DNA from: Carcharhinus amblyrhynchos
Taxonomy: Eukaryota
DNA: 64,000 bases
Direction of reading: 5' to 3'
Assembly (NCBI GenBank): GCA_965287045.1
Contig: OZ336885.1
Span: forward strand, 66,030,001-66,094,000
Part shown: piece after piece, positions 2,271 to 60,462 of the stretch
How the letters are laid out: each line of letters starts with the position of its first letter
Numbering within the stretch: the stretch's first letter is position 1
Made by a program: the position numbers and the translations under genes
The notes under the pieces: model-generated
The model's database searches: none
The model's input: the letters and a program-made list of their open reading frames with translations, nothing else
What the model was told of the DNA's origin: nothing

Positions 2271-2297
2271 ATGCAAAAGTCGAAGACGCAGTTTCGG
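2271..2297 (+). CDS. Candidate 27-nt phase-1 micro-exon (xDAKVEDAVS)
   Basis: atttctttag|ATGCAAAAGTCGAAGACGCAGTTTCGG|gtaaat. Pyrimidine tract + AG, GT donor, 27 nt, open in phase 1, ends in G like the other members. Confidence 0.65.
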
Positions 2298-2436
2298 GTA
2301 AATAAAATGTCCAATGCATTATATTGACACGTTTCTTTTCGTTTTTTTTGCAATCTCACGACCATAAAATATTAAAATAATTCAACACAGAAACTGAACA
2401 TTTCGTTTATCCCAACTATTTTAAACAAAATGAGAT

Positions 2437-2502
2437 TTTATATATATGTATATGCGTGTGTGTGTGTGTGTGCGCGCGCGCGTGTGTGTGCCTGTGTGCG
2501 TG
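2437..2502. repeat. Compound (TA)n(TG)n(CG)n microsatellite
   Basis: Seen directly in the sequence. Confidence 0.9.
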
Positions 2503-4142
2503 CATTTGCGTTTGTGTCGTTGTGCAATGATCTGGAGTTTACAACATTAGAATATTCCAGAATGCACCGATAACGTTATGGTGTACCGATTGAAAAATAA
2601 CACAGAGGTGATGTTTTTAATGTTATGGAAAAGTGTAAGCTTGACTCTATTTCAATATTTATTTCAAGAACTGTTCTCGTCAGAAATATCTGAATAGACA
2701 AATCAGGTTCTCTCCTTGACTATGAGTCTTTGACAGACCACGAGTTCCGACGTTTACCTCTCCATATGCATTGATTTACTAGATTTGTTTATACAGTCAT
2801 ATTGTGTGTGGCTATGCATGATTTCCATTCAAATGTGCTGCTGGCTGAAGGACTTATGGATGTTTGCATCTGAGGGCATCACTGCTGACCTAAAGCTAGA
2901 GAGTCCACATAAGGAAAACAGAATTTCTTCGGAAAGGGAAAATGGTGATCTTTATTTTTTGTTCATTGTTGTTTTAGAAAGCTGAACAATGGCTTGATAT
3001 TCCGAAGTATACCTGTAACCGAATTCGAATCTGAAAAACTTTTTGGACGTCAGAACGTCTCCCCTGAGTTTTATTTGAGCAATTTATAATTCGTTTTGAT
3101 TGTCGCTCACAAGAAAACAAATATTTCACATTTCACTCATCAGAAAAAACAAAGTAAAATAGGTTGTAAGGTTATCGGATCTCTAAAACTTTTCATAACA
3201 GAGTGGTGTTGAGGCAAACATCAACCTGTACTGAAGGAACGTGGAAAATGCTCAGTCTATCATATTTTATTCTGAATCGTTAAGGCATTTAAACAAATTG
3301 CAGCCACAATTGTAGGCAGCAGTTTCACGCTGAGGCAAATAACTAGTAGCATGTATTGTTTTGCTAAAAACAGAATACTGCCATCCAACCGAACATGCTT
3401 TCTGCGCATCGTGTAAACGGGTTACATGATATCTGAGGTTCTATGACTGAAATGTGAGCAATGTTTTCTATATGTACAGCAGACTTACAAATCCTTTCAA
3501 AGCAAAGTTCACGTCTGATGTCGAAAGCAGACAAAGAATTGGTTGGCCGAAACGAGCCCGATTTTACAAAACGGAGAACAAAGAGCACAGCATTAGAACC
3601 GATTCTGCGATTGAAAAAATGTTTAGACAATAATCAGGGTCAAAATGCCTGACACGAATTTGAGCAAAGCTTGGTTACGTGTCATTTCTCTGTTTGCTGA
3701 TGCATTCTCGATGTCTCCAACAATCAGAGGACACTTGCAGAGTGCAGAGTGCTTTCGCTTCCCATGAATGGTGCAGTTAGACTCTAATCATATGTGTTCT
3801 TCTTGCAAATATCTTCTTGAATGTAAGATAAAATTATTCCTAATATGCCTTTGCCCAGCGATTGCTGTGTCATGTTTTCTCTCTGCCGAAACTCAAGTGA
3901 TATAAACGGCTTTCAACTGTTGATATCAGGCTTAATCTTATGTTCCAGGGAAAAAAAAATCCATGTTTGCCTGAGTTTGCCTAAAAATACAATTCATTCC
4001 AAAAAGTATTGTTACTAAAATGTGCACAAAAGTGAAACTGATGAAAGACCAACGATCACAATGTGCACGAACAACTACGGTTATGCAAGAGATTCAATGG
4101 ATATCGTTTTAACTATTTTTGCTATCTTTAAACTTATTTTAG

Positions 4143-4169
4143 ATCCCAGCAAAATTATTGAAGAAATGG
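4143..4169 (+). CDS. Candidate 27-nt phase-1 micro-exon (DPSKIIEEM)
   Basis: cttattttag|ATCCCAGCAAAATTATTGAAGAAATGG|gtaagc. Strong donor, open frame. Confidence 0.72.
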
Positions 4170-5265
4170 GTAAGCATAATATGTTTTAAAGTACCTTGTG
4201 ATCAATTTTCTCACAGCAGAAACATGAAAGCATTTATAAGAGAATAACAAGAGACAAGAGCATATAACTATTTGAGAACAATTTTCTCTTTGACTTTTTC
4301 AACATGGTGCTTGCAAAGCCTGAACAGAATACGGACTGCAGAAAAGAGAAATTTGCAGGGATTAACCTGAAAGGAGCGCGGCTTTTACGCAAGTGTTTCA
4401 ATGTTCTACATCCAGTCACTGGCCGACTGAATTTGTACAGTAGAATATCTGAATATTAAGTTAAATGCCAAAATAAACCCTCCCCTATTCTTTCAACCTG
4501 AAAGACCAAGACATTGCTATTTATTTTCTGGGTGGTTTCCTCTTATTATGAAATTTCGAGAAATTTTGGGGAAATTATTCGGACCTTCACTGTTTCAGTA
4601 GTTCCGTTGAGTAATGTGAACATGTGCAACCTTAACCCATCTTCAGAAATACTGGTACATCATTAAAATTGATTTGAGTTGGATCTTGTTCACTCAGAAT
4701 GTGATGAGAAGTTGGAATATACGATCAAGTGTTGCACTGGAATCCAGAATCACTGGATGATAATTCCCTTAGGGAGTATATGATTTAAAATTGGGCATGA
4801 GTTTGATGAACTGACATGATAAAGTGAAAAGTGGCAAAACTTCCGATATGTGTGGCGAATTGCAAGGTGGACAATTGGTTTATTTTCATGCATTTCTGTG
4901 AATTATGCTGTCTGATCCATTACTAGCAAGGGGTGAGTATTTACTTCTAACACTGAGAATAGATGGGCGAACGCTGGGCAAGACAAATTAATGCAGGGTT
5001 TTAGAGGAAATTGGTGGAAATGACTTTGTGAAAGACTCTAGTCTTCAGCAGATAGTGGGCCAATTTATTTTCAGATGTTCAGAACATAGAAATCAAATCC
5101 AATAGACTGTAGGTACAATTTGTAAGCCGACGCACACCGTTGAATGCCTGTGAAATATAGTTTATCTCAGCTCCAGTTTGTTTTGATTATTCTATTTCGC
5201 CAAAGAAGTAGAAGTTATAATGAAAATGCTATAGCTCTGGATTAATGGACATTTAATTGAATGGA

Positions 5266-5597
5266 ACATAAATAGATACCCTAGAATGCAGAAAGAGGCC
5301 ATTTGGCCCATTGAGTCTGCACCAACCACAATTCCACCCAGGCCCTACCCCATATCTACCTACTAATCCCTCTAAACTACACATCTCAGAACACTAAAGG
5401 TCTTTTTTTTAAGCATAGCCAATCAACTTAACTCACACATCCTTGGACTGTGGAAGCAAACCGGAGCACCAGGAAGAAACCCACACAGCCATGAGGAGAA
5501 CGTGCAAATTCCACACAGACAGTGAACCAGACAGGGAATCAAAACCAGTTGCCTGGAGCTCTGAAGCAACAGTGCTGATGCCTGTGCGACCGTGCCG
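5266..5597 (-). mobile_element. HE1-like tRNA-derived SINE
   Basis: The reverse complement gives ggcacggtcgcacag...gtgtggaatttgcacgttctcc...gggtttcttcctggtgctccggtttgcttccacagtccaaggatgtg with a LINE-like 3' tail. Several paralogs occur in the window. Confidence 0.85.
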
Positions 5598-6529
5598 TCC
5601 ATGGCATGGGAGTCCCAGACTTCCCTTTTCCAAACCGACTCATTTAGTTTGTGGGGTCGCAGATGATTTTCCCCATTTCCCAATAACGAAGAATAGATGT
5701 ATTGTTTTGCATAAAATTATCTGTTTCTGATATTAATTGAGCTAAATGCAAGTGTGTAAGAGACTTCAATATCTCAATCAGGAAAAAAAGGCCATCTTTT
5801 GGATTCAAAAACTCAGATGTAACAGTTTGTCTCATGTCATATTACTTAGAAGAGCAAGGCAACTGCATCACGTTCTTCAGGTCGAAAAAGTCATGCCCCA
5901 CAGAAATAGCCAAAAAATAAAATTATGATGTTGGTTTATTATTGAACGGATCATTGTCATCCTCATCTATTGACTGTTCCTAATGCTAATGACGTGAACA
6001 AAAAAAAACACATAAGCTGTCCTTAAGTTCCCCGTTGTGGCATAGCTTGTTAAACAGCATTTTCGTCCTTGTAGAACTGTAAGGCCACCAGCCACTAATT
6101 TGCGTAGCGTGGTAGTGAGGATTGGGGCGGGGTGGGGGGGTGGTGGTGGTGGTAGTGGTAGGGGTGGGGGAAGGGAGGGGTATGGGTATTGCAAAGTTGT
6201 AGAAAGCATATGCCAGTAGGGATATTAGGGCTCTAATACTCCCTACTGGCATATGCTTCCTACAACTTTTTTTTTGCTGTTGTCAAACAAATAATTATAT
6301 GCAATATTTGTAACAGAAACACAACATTTCAATGGACACGTTGAGAACGACGTGTAGAAAAATATTTCCATCAGTAACAACAAGAATTGCTTATATCCTC
6401 ATGATATTAGCTGGAAAGCCAACTGACGCATTCAATTGAGCATTTCATATGTAACGAAATGTCCGATTTGCTAAGTAGTGAAGGTCATTCTCGTTATCTT
6501 GCTTCGTGCGCATTACATAAAAATTGTTC

Positions 6530-7075
6530 AAACATCAAATTGTGGAGGTTTACAGAAGGGACACAAGCCCTTCGGCCCAATTTGTTCATGCTGCTCCTTC
6601 CTTTAACTTCTAAGCTAGTGTCAATTGCCCGTATTTGGCCCACATCCGTATGCACCCATCATGTCCATGTAACTATCTAACTGTTTTTTTAAAGTGAAAA
6701 TTGTACCCGCCAACTCTTCTAATTTCGAATTTCGGCAGCTTGTTCCAGACACTCACCACAGTCTATGTGAAAAAAAAACCGCCACTCTGGATCCTTTTGT
6801 ATCTCTCCCATCTCACCTTAAACCTATACCCTCTAATTTTAAACTCCCCTACCGTTTGGAAACTATATTGACTAATTTGCTGATCTGTGTCCCCTAATTC
6901 TATTGACTGCGATACAATCATCACAAAGCATTCTGAGCCCTAGAGAAAAAGTCCAGCTCTATTCAAACTCTCAAAACTCGATCCATCAAGTCCCGATAGC
7001 ATCCTAGCAAATCTTTTCTGTAGGCTTTCCAGTTCAATAATATCAATTCGATATTAGGGTGACCAGAACTGTATA
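6530..7075 (-). mobile_element. Decayed CR1-clade LINE 3' fragment
   Basis: Similar to the reverse complement of the 3' end of the CR1 at 47700-48200 (gcccttcggccc...actcaccac...gaccagaactg). Confidence 0.6.
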
Positions 7076-7611
7076 TCTTTAGAGTGTCAATCCGGCTCAT
7101 ATTATTGCTGTTTCTTCCAACTGGAAATGCAGTCCACTGAAAATCTCAAATGCATCCACCCGAAGGAAGTTAATTTTAAATCTTGCAGCACAACAAATTA
7201 TTCTGTCTGGAGTCAAGGCTGAAAAGAAACACTAACTGAATACCTGGCATGGGAAATCGATTCCGACAGTAGACATCAACATTAAGTATTATTAACTACT
7301 CATGATTTGGTCCGGGCTCGAGCAAGTATAGTTTCATGATAGGCACATTCAAGGTGTTTAACGACGGAAGTGCATTATATGATGTCAACCTGTCTTCGAA
7401 CTGCCGATCGTGTATTTTTCTTTGCTCTTCGCTGTGCATCAGTAAAGTCAAACACAAATGTTAGCAGACGTGTATTGGAATTAGGTACAAACGAATGTGT
7501 TCTAAATATGGAAATTGATCTTGCAGGCATCCTGTAGATAATACATTTCACTGTTATTTTTGTTTTGATATTGTTGATTCCTTTCTTCTGAGTTTTCTTC
7601 GCCTTATCAGC

Positions 7612-7712
7612 GTCTTCTTCTTCCTCGTCTTCTTCTTCTCCTTCTTCTTCTTCTTCTTCTTCTTCTTCTTCTTCTTCTTCTTCTTCTTCTTCTTCTTCTT
7701 CTTCTTCTTCTC
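7612..7712. repeat. (CTT)n microsatellite
   Basis: Long perfect ttc run. It explains the poly-K ORF at 7554-7742. Confidence 0.95.
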
Positions 7713-7942
7713 CCTTCTATCTTTTTCTTCTTTTGTTAACAATCAAGTTTGTTATACCTTACCTGATCTGTACTAATAATGTAGTTTGTTCCTTCGTTGC
7801 AATTGCACGTTGGTATAAGATTTATTTGATTGAAATAACTATCAGCAATCGTATTCAAGTCGTGAAAAAGAACTGTTATGCAAAAAAAAAGCAACGCTGC
7901 ATGGATATGACCAATGTTAATAACCTTTATATCTATCCGCAG

Positions 7943-7969
7943 TGAAATCTCTCGTTGAAAATGATAAAG
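7943..7969 (+). CDS. Candidate 27-nt phase-1 micro-exon (VKSLVENDK)
   Basis: ctatccgcag|TGAAATCTCTCGTTGAAAATGATAAAG|gtaatt. Open frame. Confidence 0.65.
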
Positions 7970-8056
7970 GTAATTCACACTTACGCACAAAATTCATGGA
8001 TCTCTATTAAATATAAGGTTAACAACATACTCTTGAACATAATTTAGATTGCGAAC

Positions 8057-8388
8057 CATAGAACACTACAGTGCAGAAAGAGGCCATTCGTCCCATCAAG
8101 TCTGCACCCAACACAAACAATAGGGCCCACCCAGGCCCTAGCATCATGTCCCTACATATTATACCCACTAATCCCCCTAATCTACACATCCTTGGACACT
8201 AAGGAACAATTTCTTAGCAAGGGCAATCAAGCCAAACTGCACATCTTTGCACTGTGGGAGGAAACTGGAGTACCCAGAGGAAACCCACGCAGACACGAGG
8301 AGAATGTGCAAACTCCACCCAGACAGTAACCCGAGCCGGAAATCAAACCCAGGACCCAGGAGCTGTGAAGCAGCAGTGCCACCGTGCC
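8057..8388 (-). mobile_element. HE1-like tRNA-derived SINE
   Basis: Minus strand has a ggcacggtggcac head, a B-box-like gggtttgatttcc, the conserved core and a catagaac tail. Confidence 0.88.
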
Positions 8389-9843
8389 AACCACAAATAT
8401 TGGTGATGAAGGCACAATTTCCATAACTTGGGTCATTAGCAGGTAAGCAAAGTGTGAAGTGTTTTTTCAGGGCATTACGTATTTTATTGGTGTATGTTAT
8501 CAGGGCTTACATTTTCCAGGAAAATATACTGCTCGATGGATGCGATTTATTTGCATGTCAGTCAATGCCATTCAGTTAAGTATATGACTGTAATTCGGTA
8601 GAAGAATAATACATTAATTATGATGTGTTCTCAGAAGCATGCCCCTGAACTTTTTTGTCGTTGCGTATACTCACAAATGTGCAATTGCTGAACTTATGTG
8701 CATGACTAATGACGGAAATTGTGTTGATGAAATATAAACGCAAGAATAAATATGAAATCACTAAAATCAATGAGATAATTTCAGTGTTGGCCCAAAAGGC
8801 CGACAATATTCTATTAATCGATGTACAAAACTATAACATGCTGATTCTATTCCACCATTGCATAAATGCTATTTTATGTATTTACGTGAAATGTCAATAT
8901 AGCAATACCATTTGAAATAGAAATAAGACAACCAAAAATAATAAGATATGCAATTTAGATTTTAGTGAGTTTTGATTTTTCATTAGTTCTATGCAAAATG
9001 TAGAATGCATTATAGAAGCAGCAAGGGAATGATTTGAATTGAACCACTGATTTGTGAGTTCAAATTAGGCGGAGAAACTCCAATATTTGTGTTTGTATCT
9101 TAAAAAAAACAAGTTGCGAATTAACAGAGCTGCGCAGCACCAATCATGTTTGGCTGCATAAACAGATGTTTATTCATTCCATTCGGAGAATAATATTTAG
9201 CAAATGCATAATGATATTAACTTCAAAACTAATAGGAGGAAGGCAGTTACTTAATATTAATCTCGCATTTATCGTGTTCCAGCATATATTGACTGGGAGA
9301 TTTTTGATGACACTTATAGATTCATTCAAAAAATGTTTGGCAGGTATTTGAAAATAAAATGGAGAGTCATGCTTTAAATCATGAATATGTTTGGCAACCC
9401 TCTCAAAACAAATTGCAGAACCAGGGTCAACAAATGTATATGTTGCTGTGTCCACACTGATTCGATGATTAAGTAACAGATAAATTGTATAAAGTATCAC
9501 ATTTAAAGAACAGTAAAGTCATTTGGTAACCATGCGTCAAAGGCCCGACAGTCTCCTCCAAAGTCGTGTTTCCACTAAGTTTCGAAAACAGTGTTGTGAA
9601 AATATTTTAATTAATGCACTGAGGGAGATATTTTTCCTTGCTGGGAAATTGCAAAACATCGCGTTAGCTGAACATTACGTATTTTTGATGCTATTGCAAA
9701 TGCACGCAACCGGGTGGTGTTGTATTGGAATGCGAATTACAATCCGTTTGTTTTGACAGCGACGAACTGTACCAATTGCTCAATTGTTTAAATGGAATAC
9801 ATTTTCACGATCTGATACTTGTACGCATGAAATTTCATTTCAG

Positions 9844-9879
9844 AAATTGGCAGTCTGAAAGCAGACCTGAAATATGCGG
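9844..9879 (+). CDS. Candidate 36-nt phase-1 micro-exon (EIGSLKADLKYA)
   Basis: ttcatttcag|AAATTGGCAGTCTGAAAGCAGACCTGAAATATGCGG|gtaaaa. Peptide resembles the exon at 60436. Confidence 0.7.
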
Positions 9880-10623
9880 GTAAAATAAATCATTGAGCGA
9901 GATGATGTTTTCGTCATGCTTAACACATTATTTAATATATTTCAAGTTGAAGTGACTCAGGTTGTGATGGTGAAAGTCTCCTTTGGAGCATAGTATTTAA
10001 TGACTAATCTGCCACTTTTTTTATTATTTAAGTGATGATTCATCCTGTTGAGTTTGATAAGAATATCAATCGCACGAGTTGCATTTCAAACGAGGTGTGC
10101 CTGTCCATTTCAGTAAAACTGAGATATATTTCCCCAATGCATACTCTGAACCTACAACAGCCGGGTATAAAAGCTGCATTACCAAAATTTTGGCGGAACA
10201 TATCAGATCAATGGTTTGTCTTCAGAAAACATTCTTTTCATTCACTCAATACAATGGATAATCATTATTTCATATTTCAATTCCTGGATTTCCGACCCTC
10301 ACTTTAACCTCTTTAGTAAATGACTGCTGCACCCTTCGTAATTGCTATGCCAGTAATCACACTTCGCACCAAGCTCAAAGAAAAGTGCAAGCATGGATGC
10401 AATGTGTTTTTGGAGCATTGTCCCAAAATAATATGGACGAATCTTGCCAAGCCATATACTTCCAATGCATGACCGAGTTTTGAAAAAGAGGAGCACTATG
10501 TTGAAAGTTTGATAACAACACGGATGAATGATTGGCATGGGTGAATGTTTCTGATTTATTCTGTCAATCTGTTTCGTTAAGAGTTATAGGAAAAGTGCAG
10601 GTCGGCTTTGTTCCTCTGGAATA

Positions 10624-10735
10624 GATGTGGAGTTGTCAGCCTTGAACTGGGATGGGTACAGTAAGAGCTCTCAGGACACTAGTTTAAAGTCCAGTAGATT
10701 TGTTTACAATCACAGCATTTGGAGTGACCTCTCCA
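10624..10735 (-). mobile_element. Decayed Penelope-like element 3' end
   Basis: gatgtggagttgtcagccttgaactgggatgggtacagtaagag resembles the reverse complement of 20895-20973. Confidence 0.55.
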
Positions 10736-11099
10736 ACTAAAAATATGTTCCCTGCATTTTTTTTATTTGTCCACAAGGCTCTGCAATGGACGCCGTGTAC
10801 TCTCCATTTATTTCCAACTGTGAACAGCAGATACAATTTTAATACTGGTAAACATTATTTCCCCCTTGGTGAAAACTTCATCTATGACTGTTAACAGCAA
10901 AACGCTGAATATTCATAAAATCAATAACAAAGTCATAATTTCCCCTTTGCCTCTCCCTCTGGCAAAATATCCCCTACATGAAATTGTTTTACTTAAGTTT
11001 GTTTACTCATGCCACAACTCGACTTACATTTACACAACAATGACGTTTCTGTTAAAGTCCACTGGCCGCCGCACTGTGGCGCCTGTTCGGCTACACCGA

Positions 11100-11292
11100 G
11101 GGAGAATTTAGCATGGCCATTTCAGCTAACAAGCCGGACTTTCTGTGGGAGGAGACCCGAAAATGTGCAGGAAACTTACGCAAACATGGGGAGAATGTGC
11201 AAACTCTGCACTGGCAGTGATCCAAGCCAGGAATCGAAACCGGGTACATGGCACTGTGAGACTATTGTGCTAATCACTGCGATCTCCTGCCA
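11100..11292 (-). mobile_element. Partial HE1-like SINE
   Basis: Core sequence gggagaatgtgcaaactctgcac...ggaatcgaaaccggg. Confidence 0.75.
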
Positions 11293-12098
11293 AAATGTCC
11301 CGTGAATTTGCAATAATTTCTGGTTGGTTGTATCTATTAATGCAATGTTTATCCTTTCATTCTAAAAAAAAACAAACGTTTACTCTGTTCGGAAATAGCT
11401 CTGTGGACGTTGTTTTTTAGTTAGCAACAACGTCTAACCACATTTAATGTTTTCTCCCGGACGCAATGAGAAATAGTGATGAATATTTTCAATTGTACTC
11501 TAATTTATAATTTAAAGTTTCTACGTATGTTGCTGTCAGCTGATGTCAGGCCATGGCAAAAGTGCTTAACATTGACACAATGTTTGTAAACGTGTATCTT
11601 ATATACATTTGTTTTCGTCATAAATCAAACATTGATTGTTAACGTTATTTGTAAGTAAGCAAAGGAAACTGTTCGGAGGTCTGTTGTTTACTCGATTTTT
11701 TTCCAAGATTTCTCCTTGGAAAATGTGAAAATACAGTCCTTTACGAATATGACGACTTCTAGAAACATTTATTTATGTAAAACTGCCTATTTCCTGCACA
11801 TGAGGGAGACATGACTAAGGAGTGTGTTTACCTGGCGATGCAGAAGATTCATAGACTACCTTTTGTTTTGTAAATTAGAACTCACTTGCCCAATGCGGCA
11901 TGATGCAGCGTAAATGCGCAAGCGTTAAATATTACTTGACGCCAAATTGACGAAAGCACATTTTCAAGGTTAAAGAAAATAGAATGAACCGTGCCGTTGT
12001 GTGGGGACCTGTGTTCTTACGGAAACGGAAATTAGCTCAGGCTGCGTTCTGAAATAGCCATTCTCAACGGTATTGAAAACATCATTATTTTCCTTCAG

Positions 12099-12125
12099 AA
12101 GTAGAGTTACGTGCATGGAATGCAG
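12099..12125 (+). CDS. Candidate 27-nt phase-1 micro-exon (EVELRAWNA)
   Basis: tttccttcag|AAGTAGAGTTACGTGCATGGAATGCAG|gtaatc. Open frame. Confidence 0.68.
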
Positions 12126-13259
12126 GTAATCAAAAGCATTACATTAACGGAAAATTCGAAACGGAAGTTGTATGTATTATACATAATTACAATTTATGAA
12201 CAAACAAATTCAATACATTTATACTTTGCGGTTGACGTGCAAGCTTTTATAATCACGAGGCTCAATGTCCTTTGAAAATTGGAGACAATCCAAATTCATT
12301 CACGTTCCTCCAAACTTTACCTCTCCTGACAGCCATGCAGCTGCGTTTCTTAGCCTCGTAAACAAGGCAGATGTTCCCTCCCAGGACCTTCTGGGTGGAG
12401 AATATGAAAGTCTCAGACTACACGATTGCATACATTGCTCCTACTCCCTTTAATTAAAAGTGATAATTTATTTTGAAACGATTATGACTTCTTCAGATTC
12501 GATGCAATGAGAAAGATGAACCGAGGATTGAAGATGCCATACCAACGCATAAACTGATCCTGCTCAGTAAAATCACATTTTCCTTCCCTTAGATTATTGA
12601 CAATTACGAAAAACTGAACTCTGGCCACGACATATGTACCCGATGCAAACACATGTTGAGACCAAACAGCCTTAATCTCCACACCTTTCTTATTTTTTTC
12701 TTTCAAAAAGAATTGGAAAACTACGTGAAAGATGATGGTGCATATACAGATACAACCTGAGGTGTATAATATTAGAGTTGGACGTATATAACTTCATTGA
12801 GCTCTCATTCACTACTGTCTGCCAGAGGACTTGTAGAAAACCAACAAACCAATGTTTAAATCTACTTCCGATAGACTGATTCACATCCCAAAACATTAAC
12901 CGTATTTTTTCTATCAAGCCCAGCAATCAAACACACAGGAAACATAAGTGAGAAACAATGGCCATGCCTGATGGAAAAGTTACAGCAATATTCCGTCGAC
13001 TTCCTTTGAAAGTATCACTCATGATAACTTAGAGACAATATAGTAAGAATGATGATCATTCAAAAAGTGAACAAAAATTGAATCCATGTACCTTTTCGTT
13101 TTTTTTTTGTCACATATATTACGAATGAAAAAAAAACAAAGAAAACTACAGCACAGGAACAGGGTCTTCCGTCCTTCAAGCCTGCACCGACCTTCCTGCC
13201 CGACTGAACCGAAACCTCTTATCCTTCCAGGGGTCACATATTTATATTTTCATCCTGTT

Positions 13260-13340
13260 TTACAACACGAGGTTAAAGTAAGCTGGTTTATTTGGAATCG
13301 TGAATTTTCGGAGATTTCACTCCTTCATCGGGTGAAATTC
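13260..13340 (-). mobile_element. Decayed Penelope pLTR fragment with mutated hammerhead core
   Basis: Minus strand reads ttcacccgatgaaggagtgaaatctccgaaaattcacg, a degenerate version of the motif at 20845-20884. Confidence 0.5.
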
Positions 13341-13954
13341 GAGATGGTCAACAATACTGGTCTAGCCAGCGAGACCAGCCAGTCAAAATAAATTTAATCA
13401 ATAAAATTAAATAAATAAATAATGAATTTTAATCTGTTAGGATATCAGATAGATCAGAGGGAAACGTAGGTTAAAAATAAAAGACAGACAAGTTGTATTG
13501 TTCCTTTGGCTGGCCAATGCCATTCATATGTGGCCCATTGTACACCATCAAATTTCAAAGCTACACGATTCGAGGAAAGCCCATCTGCTGCAGAGACCGT
13601 GAGCTCGGAAATAGAATAATTCTATGCCCTGATCAACAATCTCCCTAAACAATAAAATATCAGTACCTTTCCACAAACGGATCCACCCCACCCCACCCCA
13701 CCCCCGCCTCCAAATCTGACTCCTCATTCCTGATTGATTTTTTTCGTGTTTATTTCTCGCTCGAAATAACAATGCGTTTCCGCATAAAGAAACGATCAGA
13801 AAACGCTAAATTTGATTCACATCACGTACATTTGATGATTCGTAGTCAGGTCAATTTGCTAATTATGTTAGCTGTGATTCCACGCTGAACAATTCGATAC
13901 AACTGTGTCTTTTTTTTAAGACAATGATTCCAAAACACTTGTGTTTTATTTCAG

Positions 13955-50068: not shown

Positions 50069-50158
50069 ATGATCTTATTGAATGGCGGGGCAGGCTCGAA
50101 GGGCTGGATGGCCTACTCCTGCTCCTATTTCTTATGTTCTTGTTTCTTATGTTCTTAT
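50069..50158 (+). mobile_element. Extreme 3' fragment of the young CR1 family
   Basis: atgatcttattgaatggcggggcaggctcgaagggctggatggcctactcc plus a (ttcttatg) tail, matching 48162-48237. Confidence 0.92.
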
Positions 50159-51639
50159 TGCGGTATCTGGCCTTCATCAGTCGCGGAGTTGTTGTCATGA
50201 ACTCCACAATAATCTGAATTGTCTTTCGTACCAAATCGTTCACATCCACAAATGTGCTTTCAGAGGGACGTGAAAACTGAGAATGCCCTACAATGCCGCG
50301 AGTTCTGAAACGCCCGAAGTGGACTAATTCAAGAATACCACATTGCATACTGATGTCGCTGACGAATTCATACTGTTCGCCGGGAGCTATCTACATAATA
50401 ACAAAAAAAGAATAATGTGAATGTCATGGGAGGAATCTGCCAGTACCTGTTATTTCTAATTGGCACTTCAGTCAGCCGCTTCCCATGTGCTTCTTTCAAG
50501 TTCTGAATCGCTGTTAAAAACAGTAACTTCAAGCACTTTATTTTCAATCATTTCATTACAAAAGATATATTAATTGAATGTTAAAAAAGATCTTCATGTA
50601 ACAGCTCATGTTAATTTGTTTAAATATAAAAGTTATTCTTAAATAACAAATTGAAGAATGAATAAAATACAATTGCAACTGACCATATTGGTCTGAGTGT
50701 CTATGGCAGTGTAATATTCCAGGCCTCCTAATGAAAACAACATTCTTGCTCGTCTACTGCGATACGTATTAATATTGTAAGCTAAATCAATTATTGTTGC
50801 CTGCGTAACTTATCCTTCGAATCTGACTCATAGTTTGTGTGCATTTATTTTCAATAGTCAACAGTCCGTTCGAGCATTTTTGTTTGTTTTTGCTCAACGA
50901 TTAAATTTATGATGTTGTCGCCGTGTTTCGAAATTTCCTCCCCAAGTGCAATCGAATATTGCGCGTGAAATCCTCAATAATGGCAATCAAACACCTGCAT
51001 CTTACCTGTAACACCAGTCTTTTTTTTAGAACCAAGTCATGCAGAGAGCCACGTTTTCCAAATGTGTTTTATGTGCCTGTTCTTCTGGTGCCGAAGATCT
51101 GTCTGAATTTTTATTGTCTAAGATGTCGTGCAGTATAACATTTATTTGGTTTGCTGTGTACTCGTACAATCAGCAACGCTTATTTGCAGTGTTCTGTTTT
51201 TTTTTCTGAGGAGCTCAATATAGTTCATCTTCAAGGGATCACAATCAATTCGCAAAGTATTCCAGGTTTTACCTGGAGTGAATACATATTTTGTTCATAA
51301 TACTGAACTGATGGCCTCACATCACGCGGTTGATGCAATGTTAACTAATATTGCAACTACTCTTGCCAACAATGTAGCACATCTGCCACTGAGTGTGGTG
51401 AACAGTAGATCGGGTCTCATTGGCTTTAAAAAGTGAGAGGAAAAACGTGTATACTTTTTTTTTAATTTTCAGAAACTCATAATTTGAAAGATTGCCTAGT
51501 TGATAAAACTAATGACAATCACAAGGCGGATTGTTTTTCTTGTTATGTATACAATTTGTCTTAATGCAAGTGCACATGCATCAATCACATACATTTACTT
51601 TAAACGGAGTTACATGGTTTATCAGGCGATTGTTTGGTT

Positions 51640-51934
51640 AATATATTGGTGCCACAAGTAGGCTTATATAAATATTGCAATAAAGGTATTGTGGAAATCC
51701 CCAAGTCGCCACATTTTTTCTGCCTGTTCGAGTACACTGAGCGAGAATTTTGTATAGCCAATGCACCGAAGTTGCACATCTTTTGGAATTTGGGAGGAAA
51801 CCGGAAAACTTGAAGCAAAGCAACGTCGACATGCGGAGAAATCCAGACTCTGCACAGACAGTGGCCGAAAACAGAACCAAACCGTTGTCCCTAGCACTGT
51901 GTAACATCAATCCTAACCACACTGCCACGGTGCC
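51640..51934 (-). mobile_element. Diverged HE1-like SINE
   Basis: gcacatcttttggaatttgggaggaaaccgga...ctctgcacagacagtggcc...ctaaccacactgccacggtgcc. Confidence 0.7.
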
Positions 51935-53117
51935 TCTTTACTAATGTAACTTTTGGAAACGATGACTGAATCTGAATCATTGGCTCACAGATATGTTCAA
52001 CTGTTCGATTATTGTCAGCTTCACTTGATTATTTGACTTTTTTGACGTGATTGCTTGACTTCAATGTCTGCCATCTTAAATATATAGGTAATGTAATTAC
52101 TGAAGAAGTATGGTGGTTTCCTTCGTTAAATGCGCGTTGTATTATTACTTGTAGTAGGGTAAATGTTACTTGGCCACACCGTTTTCAAAATTGTTGCCTC
52201 TGATCTGCCCATTGTATATTGGTGGAAAAGAATCGTACGCAATTCTTTGGAGAAAGACTTCTTACGAACATTTATAAGTAGGAATATTAGACCATTTGAT
52301 TTCGAGCATTGTATTGTACCAGTATTCAGTAGTGTCTGAAAGTTTCATTCAAATAACTTGAATTTCAGAGGCATTATCCGTTTCCCTTAACTCGGTGAGC
52401 GCCCAGAAGAATGTTAATTAGAACATCGAGTATTCTGAAAGCTGGATCCAGAAGGAAAATAGAAGTTGGATCATATAAATTGCTCAGAATTGTTTCAGTA
52501 AACAATTTGCAAAAAAATGATCGTATGTGGTTTAGCTACGATTTTCCCTCTATGATCTTGACAAATTCATGTAGGAACACAACTTCTCAGTATGTACACT
52601 GGCAAGCGCTTTGGAATGGTCTGTTTTGAGTATGTTATGGAACATTCATGGAAACTGCTGCACATCTGGGCCAAATTTGCAAACCCGACAATAGGGCGGT
52701 ATTCGTTCGATTACATGCTGCAAGAATTATTAGTTATGTTGTGCCGAGGTCCATGCTTGCATTTATACTGTGATGAGCATTCAACGCAATAATCAAATTG
52801 GGCACTCACAACAAGTCTTTAAAAAACAACAAGCTTGTTTTTTTTTTCCTGCACTCGAATAATCAAGCAGCAAATGTCAACGTGTTACTTAGATTCTAAT
52901 TTTGCTTCTTATGCCTCATGCTATATGCGTACTTCCTTCCCTTCTAGCGGTGTAATGAAGTCCCTCTGAATGGTATCATTGCAAGTTTCACGTTTGTCAA
53001 AGTGATGTTGGAATTCTCTATTCGTACAAACAACTTGCACAACCCAAAACTTCCTTAAAATATACTCCAGCACGAAGAATTTGACGCGTTCGCTGAATAT
53101 TTACATTTCTCTTTCAT

Positions 53118-53360
53118 TTCATTTGGTTTGATTTCCAATCGTCAGATTTATTTGAGTGCAGTTAAACAAAACACACAGTTGTGGCACTTGTGCGTAATTC
53201 AAACAAAACAAAGTTCCTCCTAATACATAGAGGAAAATGAAAGAATAGGGTGCAATATGTAGTTTTACATTTAAAGCTAGGGTATAGAGACAAACATTTA
53301 AGATATGTCCTTTCAAAAGTCTGATTGCTGCAGGGATGAATTTGACTTTGATTCGGTTTC
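53118..53360 (-). mobile_element. Rex1-like LINE 3' fragment
   Basis: catagaggaaaatgaaag...ctgattgctgcagggatgaa matches the reverse complement of the Rex1-like 3' ends. Confidence 0.5.
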
Positions 53361-55044
53361 TGCATGACCTCAGAGTTGCCATGATGTCACTGATTAGCAA
53401 GTACCTGTCTATGATCAATATATTTCGTCTGTCTCTTTACCTCGATAAATAATATGTTTGATAAAAAACCGTGACTCTCCAATCGATCGTTGTCATTTTC
53501 TAATAGACGCCCACGGCTAAATTAAAATCATATTTACATTAATTTTATCTTTTTTTATTATTATTCAGATGTGAACAACAATCACAATCTACGAGTAGTT
53601 CATTAGTTTATGCATTATTGAGTGGTGTTTCTTGACATAGATACATGGTGTAATTATTACTTTTCCTTCATTTCGCATTTTGAGTATTGTGTCAAACTAC
53701 ACACTATTGACCATTAAAAAAATAATACGGCTTTACTTTAGTGACACCATGTTGAATTTATCTGGTCATATTACATTGTTTCAGAAGTGTATTGCAATTA
53801 ATATTACACTTCCATTTTATTAAATCGGTTATTGTTTAACTTATTAACAATCGTTTAACATAAAATTCCACGCTGCATCTCACGAGTTTTATCTAACTGG
53901 CCCAAATGTTCAAAAGGTGTCCATCACAGAATGTTAAAAACACGCATTGGAAATGTTAATTGATCACTTTTGCCACAAAAAAAGATGAAAAACAAAAATA
54001 AACAATGAGATCTTAGAGTGTAAGTTTGATCAGATCTTATGCCGGCATGTATGGATTTGTTCTGAAACATGAATTTTCCACTTATGTCACTTAGAACTGC
54101 GATACAATTGCAAAGTGCAATGTCCACATGCCATACTAACACTAACACCAAATTACTGGTTGTTTGGCTAACATTTTCCGTGCATGTTGTATTTCCTTAC
54201 TCTGGGAAAAAAATATAAAATTGTGATCAATGTCTCTGTGATTTCAACATTATTTCCGAACTTGTTCAAAACTCCGCTACTACAGGCCCACGGCTTATTA
54301 AGGCCACGGTAGCAATTACGTATGTATTTAAACGTATGCTGAACGAGAAAAAAAAAACGTGTTACACTGATCCAGATTTTAACAATTCTTGACGGTAGTT
54401 TATGGGGTTCGAAAACAGGTCTTAGGCACGAACATACATTAATGTTTTAGTGCTTTAATTTTTTTTTAGTCCATTTATCCAAACAACCATAGACTGCCAC
54501 CCCCCCCCCCCCCCCTCACAAACTGCCCATGATGACATTTATCTTCTTCCTTTGAATAGGAGTATGCTGCTTTCAACAATGATATTAAATTCAAATTGAA
54601 TTATTCCCTATCATTCTTCCCGATTAGATCCCTGTCTCATTTATACAATTCGGTGTCAAAGCAGTACGTTTATCGATTACATAACACATTGTTCCAAGAA
54701 AAGTTCACACATGCCTTCTACAATCTAATTCTCAGGCTACTGTTGCCAAAGTGATTGTTTCTTCCGTCAGAGTCTTTACGTTTTCTCTCTCACTGTGTGT
54801 TTTCCATTGCATTATATTGCAGTTCATCAGAACAATATATAGAAACACCCCATCATGTATCTTGCACAAACGTTGGGTGCCTGGCTATTATTATTTTGAT
54901 CAGAGAGAAATAGATGTCAAATAAAAAAACTCATAAAATCATGTCATGTACATTATGTAATAATCCTATAACATACAAAGATTCAAGAATAATAGTTGAA
55001 TAATAAATCAAATGGATGTTGAGTTTTTTTTGCATGGAACAGAT

Positions 55045-55420
55045 TTAGAACATAGAACATAGAGCACAGAACAGTGCAGCACAATACAGGCTTTTCGGCC
55101 CTCAATGGTGTGCCGATATATGCCCGAACCCAAGATAAAACTATCTCACTCCCCATCAATGTGCTGTGCTTCATGTACCTATGCAATAACCTTTTGGAAG
55201 CTCCTAAAGTGAATGATTCCACTACCACAGCAGGAAGTGCATTCTACACGCCAAGCACTCTCTGAGTAAAGAGTTTACCTGGGACATCCCTCCTATATCT
55301 CCTATCATGAACCTTATCGTTATGCCCGCTAGTGACAGTTACACCTACCCGAGGAACTAGTCTCTGAACGTCGATTCTACCTATCCTCCTCAAAATCTCA
55401 TAAACTTCTATTGAATCGTA
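55045..55420 (-). mobile_element. CR1-clade LINE 3' end
   Basis: (catagaa)n tail. Minus-strand peptide RRDVPGKLFTQRVLGV. Confidence 0.8.
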
Positions 55421-57063
55421 AGATGTTGGCAAACTTATATCAGCCAAGGTCACCATGTCATAAGCAAAGATTGCATCCAATGGAAGTTCATAGAACATCA
55501 CTGGAAATTAAATGTTTGTGACCTGCAAAATCGGCGAAACATAAAAACAATATTCAAGTGGGTAATTAGGCAGAGGGTGACATTGTATATTGGAATTTCT
55601 GCTTGATATGTTTCCAGTCATAAGGCACGAACCTACACTTTGTGATACATTCAGCATGGGGACATAATTGTTTTCTGGGAAACATCGATTAACACAATCC
55701 TTTTCCTCTGATCGTGATCTAATTCTGGAAAATTTAATTTTGGAAAATGGAAGTTTTCTAATTTGGAAAATGTAAGTTTTGCTCTATGATCTCAGCAAGA
55801 ACGAATTGGAGTAGGCACGTCAAACTAGCCAAGCTTCCACATCGTGCAACGGAATATGCCTAATCACAAGCCAACCTTAGCAGTTCTTTCTTTCTCTCCA
55901 TAAACATTAACTGAATTATCAGTAAATGTTGTCTCTCTCCAAGATCCTGCAAACCTTTTGCAGCTAATTTAAAGAGAAAGAACATGCGAATAATGCCAAA
56001 CAAATTTTGAATGCAAACACTTGCCTACTGACGAAGTTTCAGTCTATTTTACCATCGGATTTAAAGGTCATTTCACATTCGGTTAAGTGTGGTAACCTGA
56101 TAAACTATTTACAAAGCACAATTCCACCGAAAGTTTCCCATGTTCGTCTTCTTACATGTTCTCCAATTTTACGTAATTCTAATAAATTTTGCTAAAGCCT
56201 GCGCTGCCATAGACTCAACAAACTCTGGAGAAAGAAATGTGTTGAGGGAAGATTAGAAATCTTCCCAGTCAGTAAACTCGTTTTGGTATTAAAAGTATGG
56301 TTGATGGGGCGAGACGACATCATCTTACAACTTTGTTCACTGTTCTGCCTGATATTAATTAGCCTGAACCCGAAAAAAAAAGATTTCCATTGGGCAGGAA
56401 TAAAATCAGTGACTGGTGCAGTAATGTCTCCTTTTAACTGAGATCACATGATTAATTGTACTTCCCGATGTATAGAAAGTAAGGCAGCATTTCACACAAT
56501 CAAACATGATGGAATTGTACAATACTGAAGGTGAGCGTTTTTTCATTCTGTCCTTTGTCATACTCTCAGGAGACCATTCAAATATTTTAACTTCCTGATT
56601 CTTTGCTTCTTTGTTCACCCTAGCACATTGTACATCTGATTTATCCCGAAATGTGTATTCAATTTCCTTTCGGTATTTAATTTTCAACTGTCTACAGAAC
56701 CACTGCAGATAGTCACCTGATAGTAAATCATTAGCATCGGATCAATTCCACATTCCATAACCATCCAGTCTTCTTTTATCGAGAATGAGGTTCACTAGGC
56801 TGACTGCACAGGCACTGGCATTGCAGGTTAGAGGCAAAACCAATATAATTTGTTTGTTTTTGCCAGCGTACAGGTCATGTAGTTTTGCGAGGTGAAAACT
56901 GAACAAAATTGATGTAGGTTGTCCAAGCGGGTGCTTTGATTTCCAACATCCCATTATTATGTTTTGCATTCGCATTTGTTCAGAAATTTGCAATTTTGTC
57001 AACATAAAAGATGCGAACATAGTCGTGAATGTCAACTGTTTGATGTGCTTATTTTTCTTGCAG

Positions 57064-57081
57064 ATAGCAAATTAATTGACG
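57064..57081 (+). CDS. Candidate 18-nt phase-1 micro-exon (DSKLID)
   Basis: tttttcttgcag|ATAGCAAATTAATTGACG|gtaaaa. Strong acceptor and open frame, but the length differs from the other members. Confidence 0.45.
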
Positions 57082-57469
57082 GTAAAATGGCCATTTTCTA
57101 TGTTTCTTCCAACGCTACAAGAGCGCATTGTTCCGATGGTTTGGCTCTTCTGACATTCAGGTCGCTCCATAGAAGATTTGAGAGCTGCCAAAAAAAGGAG
57201 TAGATTTGTATACCATAACCTTCCTTCTTAGTTTCAATTTAATCTATCATAAATGCCCTACTCTAAGTATATGCTTGCCACATTTAATGTAATGACTTTA
57301 CAATATTATCATCTGGTTGTTGTCTCCCACATGATAACAAATGGCGATAGTCTTTTGCTCTGGTTGAACAAGTGCTCAATAATGAGGATTTCGTCAAGAT
57401 GGTATCAAGTAGAATTTATAAATCAAAGTTGTCTTTCCTTGGAGCTCTGTTTGCTATTTTCTTTTGCAT

Positions 57470-58000
57470 TCTGATTTGATTTTGATAGAATTTGACTTGC
57501 TATTGTCACATGTATTAGTATGCGGTGAAAAATATTTTTCTTACATATATACAGACAAAGCGTACCGTTCGGAGAGAAGGAAAGGAGAGTGCAGAATGCA
57601 TTGTTAGAATATTAGCTAGGGTGATGAGAAAGGTCAACTTAATGCGAGGCAAATCCTCTCAAATGTCTGATGGCCGCAGGGAAGAAGCAGTTTTTTTGTG
57701 TGTGGCTTGGTATGTGACATTGGACTTTTCATTTTTTTTTTCCCTGACCAAAGAAGCTGGAAGCAGTATGTCCGGGGTGGGTGGGGTCATTAATTATTCC
57801 GGCTAATTTTCCGAGACGGCGGGAAGGGCAGATAGAGAAGATAAATTGGAAGCCATTTTGCGTGATAGACCGGGCTTCATTCGCGAGCCTTTGTAGTTTC
57901 TTGCGGTCTTGGGTGAAGCAGGAGCCATTCTAATTGGTGACATAACCAGAAGTAATGCACTCTATCATGCATCTGTAAAGGTTGGTGAGTGATATCATCA
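57470..58000 (-). mobile_element. Rex1/Babar-like LINE 3' fragment
   Basis: (tgatt)n tail followed by tattgtcacatg...ggagagaaggaaagg...gcagggaagaagcag...gcaggagcca. Confidence 0.75.
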
Positions 58001-58819
58001 ATTCAATCCATGCAGTTATGAAACAAAAGTAATTTGCAGCGGGTATAAATTGAGTGAGAATTATAATTAACAGGAAATATCCGCATGTTCTCTATTAAAA
58101 TCACACATTCTATCTTGGGTTCATACTGCAAAACTAGTTTAGTTAGTTTTGACTGCACAACTGTCAAAAAAGCGTACCAACGCAATGGCATAGTTTTTTT
58201 TTTAAAACTTGACCTAAGAATGTCGATGCAGCTACGTTTTCACTACGTTTGTGAGTATCTTCTGCACCACTTCAGTAAAATAAACTCATTGACTTATTAT
58301 TGTGTCAAAATACCTTTGCACTTGAATAAATATTTAGCAATCATTTAAATTGCAATTCCGTCTCTACCAATTGATCACAAATATTGCTATAAGATGAAAT
58401 GAATCCCCTAACTCATTTCGGTACAACTAGTAAATAGTCTTGTTGATATAATCTGGGGGAATTTGTGAAGTAGACCATTGCATCGAAAACAAACAACAGT
58501 TTGCGCAAAATTATGCAAATAGTTAATTACACAGGAAACAAAATAGCTTGAATGTTGAGCGCGCTTGCACCAATGAAAATAAAGACATAAAGGCAAAATA
58601 ATATGCAGAAGCAATGCCAGCACTAAAAACAAACGTGTAAATTTTCAAAAGCGAGTTCTGGCATTAAGATATAGGGAGCTACATTTTGAGCTAGCACAGA
58701 TAATTACACACATTGAATGTCCAGAATAGCAAACAGAAGATGAAAAAAAAAGTTGAATTTTTTTTTAAGATTTTTTTTCCTGTGAATGAATCGATTTAGT
58801 TCATAAAGGAATATAATAC

Positions 58820-59022
58820 ATGCTCCTAATTCCTCCGATGTCCAGTGATCTGTGGGTTAGGTTGAATCGCCATTATAAAGTGTTCTTAAGTGTCAGTGGT
58901 AAATATGTGGGATTACAGGGAGAAGATCTGCGTGTGTTTGTTGCCAATCAACGTACCATATGCCGAATTGCCACTTTCTGAACTGTAGGCATTCTATTCT
59001 ATTCTATTCTATTCTATTCTAT
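58820..59022 (+). mobile_element. HE1-like SINE 3' portion with (attct)n tail
   Basis: gtgggttaggttgaatcgcc...gccgaattgcc followed by (attct)x6. Confidence 0.6.
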
Positions 59023-60435
59023 TGTAATCCAATCTATTATTTTCTGTCCTAGACAGATGATAAGATAATCTCGATCACGCCGATTCAGGAATGGGACAAA
59101 TTGCAATACGCTTTATCTTTAATTGTGCCCAGTCAATAGTTGATTGCAGAAAAAGAATAAGATATTTCCACAGTTGCGATGAAAGTTGAAGCTGGCTGTT
59201 TCACTCTGCTGCTTTGCAGTAAAATCAAGAGTTAATTCCACACAACATTGACTCCAATAATTATTTCGCTGTTTCCTTTCAAACAGCAGGAACTACGACA
59301 TCATCCAAGGCAATGTCTCTAATCGTCAGAGCTCACTTAACAATCAACTAGAAATCTACATTTTGTAAGCAGATGGTCAAATAATTTCCAATTACGGCAG
59401 CCGATCTGGTGAACATACAGATGCTATATTGGGTGCATGATTAGGATAGACCTAAGATTTCAATCCTCTATTATTGCTGAAAAAACACGAATTTGCATTT
59501 CCATCCAGAATGTTGCATGCAGGTGATCTAACTTCAACTTTCATTCTAACATAATTTTGATCCTGGTTTCGGAAGATTTTCTATCAGGTTTTTGGTTGTA
59601 TGTGTGATTGTGCCAATTTATTTGAATGCGGCGGAGCTGGAATTTTGCAGCCAATTTTCCTCAGTGACATTCCATTGGCGTTTGGAAAAGCTGAAGTACC
59701 TTAACTGGTACAGTATTTCCGGACTGTGCATTTTACGTAAAACCAACGCTTGTGTGGCAGGACAAGTTCATTTTCCCGTCAATTGCACCCCAAACCAATT
59801 GACCCTGGGAGATTCAACGATGTAAAACATGCTGCTCTTCGATTGCAGTTCATTATGTTTGTTGAGACTACTGTGCAACAAACATTGCTTGTCATTGCTC
59901 AACTCATTCCTGGATGTTGCGCAGCTCTTGGATCATGTCAAATTAAGGTTTACATCTGCAGAACAGATCTTGATAAAACAATTGAATATATATCTGCCAC
60001 CTAACAGATTCAATCCCATCAGATATTACATACCATGACTTTGTGGGGAAAAGTGGAGCGTAAAATTAGCTGCTGTTCTGATCCCTTCAGCTTTAGTTTG
60101 ATTTAAAAAAAAATCCTTTCCAGAAACAGGGACGATCTTCCTGCCAGAATGTCCCGACGCAACCAGAAAGAGGATCAGACGACCTCATTTCATATTGGTT
60201 TCAACTCGTCCTGGTATAGTACAGGATTCATTTTTTGCTCAGGTGCCGTGTTGTGACCGAGACGCAAACAAAGTTTCTTGCTCGGCGTGCCAGTGTCAAT
60301 TCACATAAAAGTTCAGCTGGTCGCTGTAGTATTGGGACAAGTCTATTGGACGCGAGGAAGCGAGGAATGAACATAATTTGAAACAGCATTGTGATCCTTA
60401 TATGTAGCATAAAACACGCCCGACTTTCGTTTCAG

Positions 60436-60462
60436 AACTTAGAACAGATCTTGAATACGCAG
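60436..60462 (+). CDS. Candidate 27-nt phase-1 micro-exon (ELRTDLEYA)
   Basis: ttcgtttcag|AACTTAGAACAGATCTTGAATACGCAG|gtaaaa. Paralogous to the exon at 9844. Confidence 0.72.

Follow-up and report, generated by a model that had tools for sequence, protein, structure and literature searches.

What kind of gene is built from coding pieces of at most 36 nucleotides (nt)? The question is raised by a stretch of 64,000 nt from Carcharhinus amblyrhynchos (contig OZ336885.1, here C16, positions 66,030,001-66,094,000 of a 2.92-Gb assembly), which we call the window and relative to which positions outside it are given. An initial annotation had joined 13 very short + strand segments of the window into a hidden gene of symmetric phase-1 micro-exons encoding an E/K/L-rich heptad coil, and had offered two identities for it: the tail of an immune-receptor-like gene, or an undescribed micro-exon gene. 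Our analysis took in 800 kb of sequence on the upstream side of the window and 400 kb on the downstream side. The reading we favour, with a probability of roughly two in three, is that the window lies inside a 900-kb one-strand array of about 180 candidate phase-1 micro-exons that ends in a B30.2/SPRY exon, that these are likely joined in one mRNA, and that the predicted product is a coiled-coil rod in the cytoplasm that carries a binding head and lacks immunoglobulin (Ig), RING or B-box domains. The second of the two identities is the better fit. Established here are the array with its bias in strand, exon length and phase, the heptad periodicity, the SPRY exon and its clade, the sister genes and the tandem exon copies.

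The micro-exon array and its predicted coil

We scanned the whole window de novo for AG..GT segments, without reference to the earlier picks. All 13 segments were recovered at their original positions on the + strand, seven of 27 nt, five of 36 nt and one of 18 nt; all are stop-free in phase 1 and 12 end in G, the segment at 30307 ending in A. When segments of 27 or 36 nt were selected by generic splice matrices with approximate values and a stop-free filter, eight were found on the + strand and none on the - strand, compared with a mean of 0.43 and a maximum of three in 60 local dinucleotide shuffles of the window (0/60 reach eight or more). A model of family exons, whose training set consisted of 85 exons that all lie beyond the window, gave ten + strand candidates and no - strand candidate at a score of at least 18 (overlapping alternatives counted). 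The check proposed at the outset, enrichment of 27- and 36-nt segments on both strands and in shuffles, thus returns a + strand excess. Chance picking of the segments was considered as a separate explanation and is ruled out by the strand, length and shuffle comparisons.

The whole window (1..64000, +) is an internal slice of an array that reaches beyond both of its ends. Between -500 and +400 kb, strict generic scores applied without a content filter select 49 segments of the two main lengths on the + strand (27 nt, 24 segments; 36 nt, 25 segments), compared with a mean of 1.69 and a maximum of six for other lengths between 9 and 60 nt (21 nt left out), and with one segment of 27 nt and none of 36 nt on the - strand. 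These 49 segments are stop-free in phase 1 in 46 cases, as against 18 in phase 0 and 26 in phase 2, and 48 end in G, a figure that is partly circular since the donor matrix rewards G. The family model at a score of at least 18 finds 151 + strand candidates and one - strand candidate in the same interval (training exons included), and one + strand candidate in the 358 kb outside it. With the threshold set to at least 14, at which about nine false calls are expected from the - strand and weak true exons are missed, 178 non-overlapping exons extend from -496,937 to +399,697 (one earlier candidate aside): 14 of 21 nt, 87 of 27 nt, 72 of 36 nt and five of 18 nt. The 21-nt block comes first and the 27- and 36-nt exons follow. 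The claim that all lengths are multiples of nine therefore holds inside the window and fails beyond it, as the array opens with 21-nt exons. Gaps between exons have a median of 3.4 kb and a maximum of 29.8 kb, and about 180 predicted exons of no more than 36 nt are spread over about 900 kb.

The initial annotation had also suggested a search downstream for a B30.2/PRY-SPRY exon. One is present at +406,397..406,911 on the + strand (L057:2397); it encodes 171 amino acids (aa), starts in phase 1 and matches Pfam SPRY (E = 1.7e-12). PRY was not detected in this terminal exon and lies below the curated cut-off in two relatives. Four sequencing-read sets over the last 10 kb of the gene gave contigs spanning introns, with no exon-exon joint among those shown; they behave like DNA of related organisms and were set aside as expression data. 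In one of these sets the piece over the terminal exon has 18 differences in 1,016 bases and seven intron pieces have 15-48 in 556-1,317, which is a weak hint only.

Joined in genomic order, the 178 exons encode 1,775 aa without a stop at any junction (16% K, 15% E, 14% L, less than 1% P with 16 Pro, and 47 Cys), and the predicted rod has about 1,800-2,000 residues. Fourier analysis of hydrophobicity gives a period of 3.5 with a power of 43.5, compared with a maximum of 18.8 in 100 shuffles. Exons of 36 and 27 nt alternate more than expected (119 changes against 78.6; 0/5000 shuffles reach this value). In a set chosen blind to content, hydrophobic peaks fall at positions 2, 5, 9 and 12 of the 36-nt exons and at position 4 of the 27-nt exons, which we infer to be the a and d sites of three heptads per 21-residue pair. 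Between -210 and -90 kb the unit is often 36-27-27-27, or 39 residues, with a peak at 3.55, and the first eight exons of the window carry this rhythm on from a 36-nt exon at -2987. The array and its periodicity uphold the proposal of a hidden gene of symmetric phase-1 micro-exons encoding a heptad coil. Collagen was tried as a candidate and ruled out (no Gly-X-Y, 2% Gly).

If the array exons are joined into one mRNA, each 21-nt exon would contribute one heptad, each 36+27 pair 21 residues or three heptads, and each 36-27-27-27 unit of the upstream part and window start 39 residues, that is, four heptads and one 11-residue step. Two or more chains could wind into a rod; coiled coils rise by about 0.148 nm per residue, and 1,775 aa would span up to about 260 nm if continuous. 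PRY-SPRY binds partners in TRIM21, pyrin and BTN3A. The rod may be a spacer or scaffold by which B30.2 heads are held in pairs on a partner protein, a role suggested because the heptad tails of butyrophilins and the zipper protein of chicken BG act in this way on a small scale. The gene would grow by tandem duplication of exon-plus-intron units, as at 29.0-33.7 kb in the window, and, given the symmetric phase, extra copies could decay or be left out of the transcript with the reading frame intact.

Free skipping of any exon, as first envisaged, is only partly in keeping with these data. Skipping is frame-safe, and annotated isoforms of three relatives (predicted models) differ internally by blocks of 9, 6 or 7 residues, which are the sizes of family micro-exons; however, the 36/27 alternation points to sets that keep register. 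Because loss of a single 9- or 12-residue exon would shift the heptad register, this suggests that selection holds exons in register-preserving sets and that their inclusion is mostly coupled rather than free.

SPRY relatives and sister genes

The genome holds seven divergent SPRY exons of this family (E <= 4e-36; next match 5e-19). Six of them map to C16 between 60.4 and 66.4 Mb, and the seventh sits on C9 among many ordinary B30.2 exons. Ordinary B30.2 exons make up about 140 of the 150 scored and form dense clusters on C9 (96-112 Mb), C41, C46, C53 and C73; with exons of IgC type on C46, C53 and C9, they represent large TRIM and butyrophilin-like expansions. We built a quick tree of 62 rows taken from 175 (seven from this genome and 168 fetched proteins), namely the family rows and rows shorter than 700 aa, with non-family rows chosen and labelled by RING, B-box or Ig motif patterns. 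The 17 family rows (seven from this genome and ten database proteins, which where named come from shark, ray, skate and chimaera) form one clade with a support of 100 by the Shimodaira-Hasegawa-like approximate likelihood ratio test (SH-aLRT) and a branch of 1.51, and the array gene groups with the sisters C16:63.736 and C16:63.149 (support 97). TRIM and Ig-bearing rows are intermixed around this long-branch clade. Against solved structures, the SPRY domain is about equally distant from TRIM58 (9e-17, the best) and BTN3A3 (1.1e-15).

Among 1.84 billion representatives, the closest single-domain matches, where named, come from skate, catshark, electric ray, basking shark and chimaera. Word-indexed protein searches with the SPRY exon gave no match, and an alignment search gave eight proteins, one of them in the family. 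Relatives scanned by Pfam have a coil and SPRY, or SPRY alone, in 175-1,697 aa and carry no Ig or RING; their database names ('TRIM39-like', 'TRIM58', 'TRIM69-like', 'zinc-binding protein A33-like', 'nuclear-pore anchor-like') would, where of TRIM type, derive from the SPRY alone. Annotated relatives in catshark (945 aa, period 3.5) and chimaera (1,697 aa) join a long coil to a family-type SPRY. As a lead only, the ESM Atlas clusters nearest the catshark relative include chordate proteins of 1,277, 1,579 and 1,802 aa, for which SPRY is given at 100% and the family lists contain neither Ig nor RING; one of them is named 'isoform X51'. Searches of our 1.26-Mb region with the relatives by tblastn matched only the SPRY exon and pieces of long interspersed nuclear elements (LINEs).

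The flanks of the six sister SPRY exons are likewise biased in strand, with 41 sense and six antisense micro-exons at a score of at least 14, and 27 and one at a score of at least 18. One sister is likely arranged head to head with the array gene: its family exons lie on the - strand from about -594 kb outward, a 36/27 block followed by a 21-nt block, and 20 sampled 10-kb stretches between 63.83 and 65.17 Mb hold 29 - strand matches and one + strand match. In samples of this large sister the 21-nt exons come first and 27/36-nt exons lie nearer the SPRY at 63.736 Mb, so that its sampled sequence likely represents a - strand array of about 1.7 Mb (C16 63.74-65.44 Mb); alternatively, part of the region may be inverted. 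On the 5' side of its 21-nt block the large sister carries a further 36/27 block, which is not seen in the array gene. With a head-to-head arrangement, the 5' ends of the two genes would both fall within about 97 kb. A retroviral env-like fragment (TLV_coat, E = 7.5e-8) lies between them at about -576 kb (L085:3612-3923, +).

The 5' end, rival readings and the exons of the window

The first of the two identities offered for the gene implied a receptor-like front end. Ig, RING and B-box domains were absent from all 168 + strand ORFs (open reading frames) between -800 and -484 kb (the V-set control at +459 kb was detected), from 86 of the 92 minus-strand ORFs of the interval between the head-to-head genes, and from 61 of the 63 ORFs upstream of the short sister C16:63.149(-); ORFs left out were repeat-derived or inside the array gene. 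BLAST upstream of the array gave no match to Ig-bearing B30.2 proteins, C2-set_3 had no hit on C16 among 87/87 scored candidates, and hydropathy and exon scans near the array start revealed no convincing transmembrane or signal-peptide exon. A genome-wide V-set search, with 150 of 1,794 candidates scored, was saturated and has no bearing on this result. Because these searches were negative, a cytoplasmic protein without Ig or RING is the best reading, with its start unproven, and the proposed receptor front end finds no support in this region or in the relatives scanned.

Several points need to be set against this reading. The gene model is known here from genomic DNA alone, with splicing predicted, and the protein's function is proposed by analogy only. 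The Ig and RING screens took in ORFs that lie inside a single 10-kb locus and have a minimum length of 75-80 aa; two of the three ORF sets were also filtered for Cys (on the + strand also for Trp). A start codon and first exon were sought near the array start, where no clear candidate appeared, and the skate and chimaera models of two relatives have hydrophobic N-termini, which may be signal or anchor sequence or may come from introns read into the predicted gene models. The 162 aa encoded by the window exons themselves peak at 3.55 with a power of 43.0, above the shuffle mean and below the shuffle maximum of 52.7; five 36-nt exons in succession at 27.5-32.7 kb interrupt the alternation; and the tested stretch of the chimaera relative has no clear heptad peak (3.7, within shuffles). 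The order of 27- and 36-nt exons in the array gene and the large sister shows no significant correlation (rho 0.24, p = 0.23, n = 27). A last point is the match between the window start and the 5' end of the short sister.

The 21 exons at that 5' end align best to the window, with the first exon at 4143 and a score of 137 (30-exon stretches elsewhere in the array, away from the window, reach at most 75, and order shuffles reach at least 137 in 9/2000), in an alignment to which four low-scoring window exons were added by hand. Seven of the 21 have their best match inside the window, which contributes 16 of 163 exons. In both genes the first aligned exon ends in an in-frame ATG, a (TCT)n tract precedes the next exon, and an aligned 36-nt exon has a GC donor. 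The alignment independently supports the earlier picks, and the window start is likely a duplication border or an internal promoter. When -100..+130 kb was compared with the short sister as DNA, nearly all matches were repeats; one weak collinear match lies over exon 27458. The short sister array ends about 97 kb short of the 3' end of the next gene, with no same-strand family exon scoring at least 14 between. These results leave some room, in our view a limited one, for two tandem units: a SPRY gene of about 400 kb starting at or just before the window's first exons, and an upstream 500 kb that would be either a separate coil gene lacking SPRY or a 5' extension used optionally when transcription begins at a distal promoter. 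However, the alignment includes the hand-added exons, the 36-27-27-27 rhythm crosses the supposed border (-2987, 2271, 4143, 7943, 9844), and the large sister keeps the whole order from 21-nt exons to SPRY on one strand; the short sister may be a 5'-truncated duplicate.

It is improbable that the array is the huge cytoplasmic tail of a butyrophilin- or BG-like receptor whose Ig and transmembrane exons lie farther upstream or are too divergent. No Ig ORF was found within 300 kb upstream, the opposite-strand sister starts already 97 kb upstream, and Ig is missing upstream of the short sister and in the family relatives scanned, as is C2-set_3 on C16. This has to be balanced against the near-equal distance of the SPRY from BTN3A3 and TRIM58, the start of the chimaera relative, which is a hydrophobic stretch followed by basic residues, and the order of 21-nt exons, 27-nt exons and B30.2, which resembles that of butyrophilins (heptad exons between the transmembrane part and B30.2, PMC6790196; 21-nt exons are described for BG in PMC4046983).

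Signal-like N-termini in the skate and chimaera models, together with the 47 Cys among 1,775 coil residues, would also suit a secreted fibrous protein in which a signal peptide, coil and B30.2 form a structural gel or fibre. We regard this as very improbable, given that no signal-peptide exon was found near the array start, that a hydrophobic core is missing from what is likely the first coding exon of the short sister and that a contig-derived relative would also gain its hydrophobic start from intron read-in. It is likewise very improbable that the gene is real and its window portion decayed and mostly skipped. This might be suggested by the weak donors of 30307 and 36359, by exons of irregular length (18 and perhaps 54 nt), by the similarity of only 72-76% between tandem copies and by content scores below those of the flanking blocks. 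Against it, each of the 16 window exons retained has an exact length and no stop, the four tandem exons stay at 36 nt without an indel despite gapped flanking introns, and the order matches the sister.

The window exons, all on the + strand, differ in individual strength. Among 9,986 minus-strand candidates over 900 kb, not one reaches the splice scores of 12099, 13955, 24406, 57064 and 60436, and 2271, 7943 and 9844 have 1.2-1.5 minus-strand equals per 64 kb each. By splice signals alone, 29227 has 3.9 and 31320 has 5.5 such equals, and 30307, with a donor score of -5.6, has about 32; these three are individually weak and are supported mainly by mutual homology and coding content.

From the 5' side, the 27-nt exon 2271..2297 (moderate scores) is the first of the three 27-nt members in the 36-27-27-27 unit whose 36-nt exon lies at -2987. 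The 27-nt exon 4143..4169, which has an in-frame ATG plus G just before its donor, aligns with an exon of the short sister that is the 5'-most one detected there. An intronic (TCT)n pyrimidine tract (7613..7732, +) lies about 0.2 kb 5' of the 27-nt exon 7943..7969, and a similar tract lies 5' of the matching exon in that sister. Next come the 36-nt exon 9844..9879 (family-model score 24.5; in the sister-gene alignment) and three strong 27-nt exons, 12099..12125, 13955..13981 and 24406..24432, the last with a TCC/TCT-rich tract upstream (24267-24404). At the 3' end stand the 18-nt exon 57064..57081 (strong acceptor) and the 27-nt exon 60436..60462 (strong splice signals). All of these belong to the original 13, as do the four tandem exons below. 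Three further exons are likely: 27458..27493 (36 nt, last base C), 36359..36385 (27 nt, strong acceptor and weak donor, close sister-gene match) and 40376..40411 (36 nt, GC donor, likewise in the aligned sister exon). Three other segments are tentative candidates, namely the doubtful 27-nt 12711..12737, which is off the repeat order and has no sister-gene partner, one at 33024, and the 54-nt phase-1 candidate 42384..42437 with a strong acceptor. TCT/TCC-rich tracts occur 5' of one 27-nt exon class at three places (7613-7732, 24267-24404 and L160:3000-3300) and might, speculatively, act as splicing elements for micro-exon inclusion.

Between 29000 and 33750 (+, ends approximate) an exon-plus-intron unit of 1.0-1.3 kb, comprising repeat families D2, D3, D5, D8, D9 and D13, is tandemly repeated. 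Four copies contain one 36-nt exon each (29227..29262, 30307..30342, 31320..31355 and 32630..32665) and a fifth is cut off before its exon. The figure of 72-76% refers to copies of D2; all four exons still have 36 nt and an open frame, and the flanking introns carry many gaps. The heptad pattern is weakened in the third exon, and the second, with A as its last base and no donor consensus, is likely skipped or decaying. Because the sister gene aligns only one exon there, the four exons appear to be lineage-specific copies. Another recent tandem duplication of several exons lies within the array at -85 to -42 kb (L034-L038), with three to four near-identical 36-nt exons and 27/36-nt partners that contain Pro and are poorly helical.

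Other features of the window and its surroundings are as follows. An intron of the array holds a LINE-type retroelement at 45757-48236 (+; RVT_1, E = 9.8e-35), with a partial inverted copy about 3 kb upstream (43897-44728, -; 97-98% complementary). A perfect inverted repeat with 171-nt arms (20225-20395 and 20754-20924, 358 nt between them) probably stems from the recent insertion of a small transposon or from the assembly. In the intron just past the window is a gag-like ORF of 518 aa (window coordinates 66,624-68,177, +) with a zinc knuckle (E = 4e-4). The next gene downstream is an unrelated single-exon seven-transmembrane ORF of the rhodopsin family on the - strand (L059:5291-6214), and the next on the + strand is represented by the V-set Ig exon at +459 kb (L062:4878-5399), nectin-like by eye.

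Significance and comparison with known systems

This analysis adds the full span of the gene, its sister cluster, a bounded negative for Ig and RING, and a possible internal start. If the transcript is real, its exons of at most 36 nt, about 180 in number, would be an extreme case of micro-exon definition across introns with a median of 3.4 kb. The array gene and its sisters may fill much of a 6-Mb stretch read as empty by ORF-based annotation, and the family, whose database models are mostly short pieces with TRIM names, may be largely mis-annotated; it is at least as old as the split between chimaeras and sharks and rays. The system makes testable the tuning of coiled-coil length by symmetric exons and the use of B30.2 heads without Ig or RING partners.

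We suggest only tentatively, as a proposal with the odds against it, that cartilaginous fishes have an undescribed family of 'adjustable rod' genes on the megabase scale. Three of them, of 0.5, 0.9 and about 1.7 Mb, would be neighbours on the same chromosome arm, and the exons of 7, 9 or 12 residues could number as many as a few hundred per gene. Which promoter is used and which micro-exons are skipped would determine how long the cytoplasmic coil with its B30.2 heads is (100-300 nm) and in what register it runs, giving combinatorial isoforms that are neither butyrophilin nor TRIM, and the window would be an internal start point and a site of exon birth. Among literature listings and the opening lines of abstracts we found no description of the family; supplements and subscription journals fall outside that scope, and a prior account is possible. 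The main texts of PMC11979771 and PMC10751288 do not mention SPRY, B30.2 or butyrophilin.

Butyrophilins (BTN1A1, BTN3A1/3A3) resemble the array gene in having very short heptad exons followed by a terminal B30.2 exon, with an SPRY similarity of 1e-15. They differ in carrying IgV/IgC and transmembrane exons, none of which were found in the array gene, and in having few heptad exons, whereas the array gene has about 180 in 36+27-nt units and an SPRY in a separate long-branch clade. Ordinary IgC-bearing B30.2 clusters, moreover, lie on other contigs than the array gene. In the sections of PMC6790196 available to us, butyrophilin heptad exons lie between the transmembrane part and B30.2, and isoforms lacking one heptad exon occur; the available part of PMC12841164 deals with Ig-bearing butyrophilins only.

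Chicken BG genes share with the array gene their many 21-nt exons, which form the 5' block both here and in the large sister. The array gene has about five times more exons, mostly of 27 or 36 nt, a terminal SPRY, a span of about 900 kb and no IgV found upstream. BG proteins have a membrane anchor and are not known to carry a B30.2 domain. According to the excerpted text of PMC4046983, BG genes encode one IgV and a long coiled-coil tail in many exons of 21 or 24 nt, 13-36 per gene and variable in number, and a soluble form of the tail, the intestinal zipper protein, regulates actin-myosin interaction.

The nearest architecture is that of the enterophilins, which combine a heptad region with B30.2 and are not known to carry RING or Ig. 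These guinea pig proteins are cytoplasmic, with an extended leucine-zipper region; they are mammalian and several times shorter than the array protein. Enterophilin-1 binds sorting nexin 1, according to a reference and a table row in PMC13749957. Enterophilin is probably an analogue of the array protein rather than an orthologue. TRIM proteins and their relatives (TRIM58, TRIM39, TRIM21, pyrin) also place a coiled coil before PRY-SPRY, as in the array gene. TRIM proteins of the RBCC type have an N-terminal RING and B-box, neither of which was found in the upstream ORFs of the array gene or in the relatives scanned, and their coils pair as antiparallel dimers. The coil of the array gene is far longer than a TRIM coil and is coded by micro-exons.

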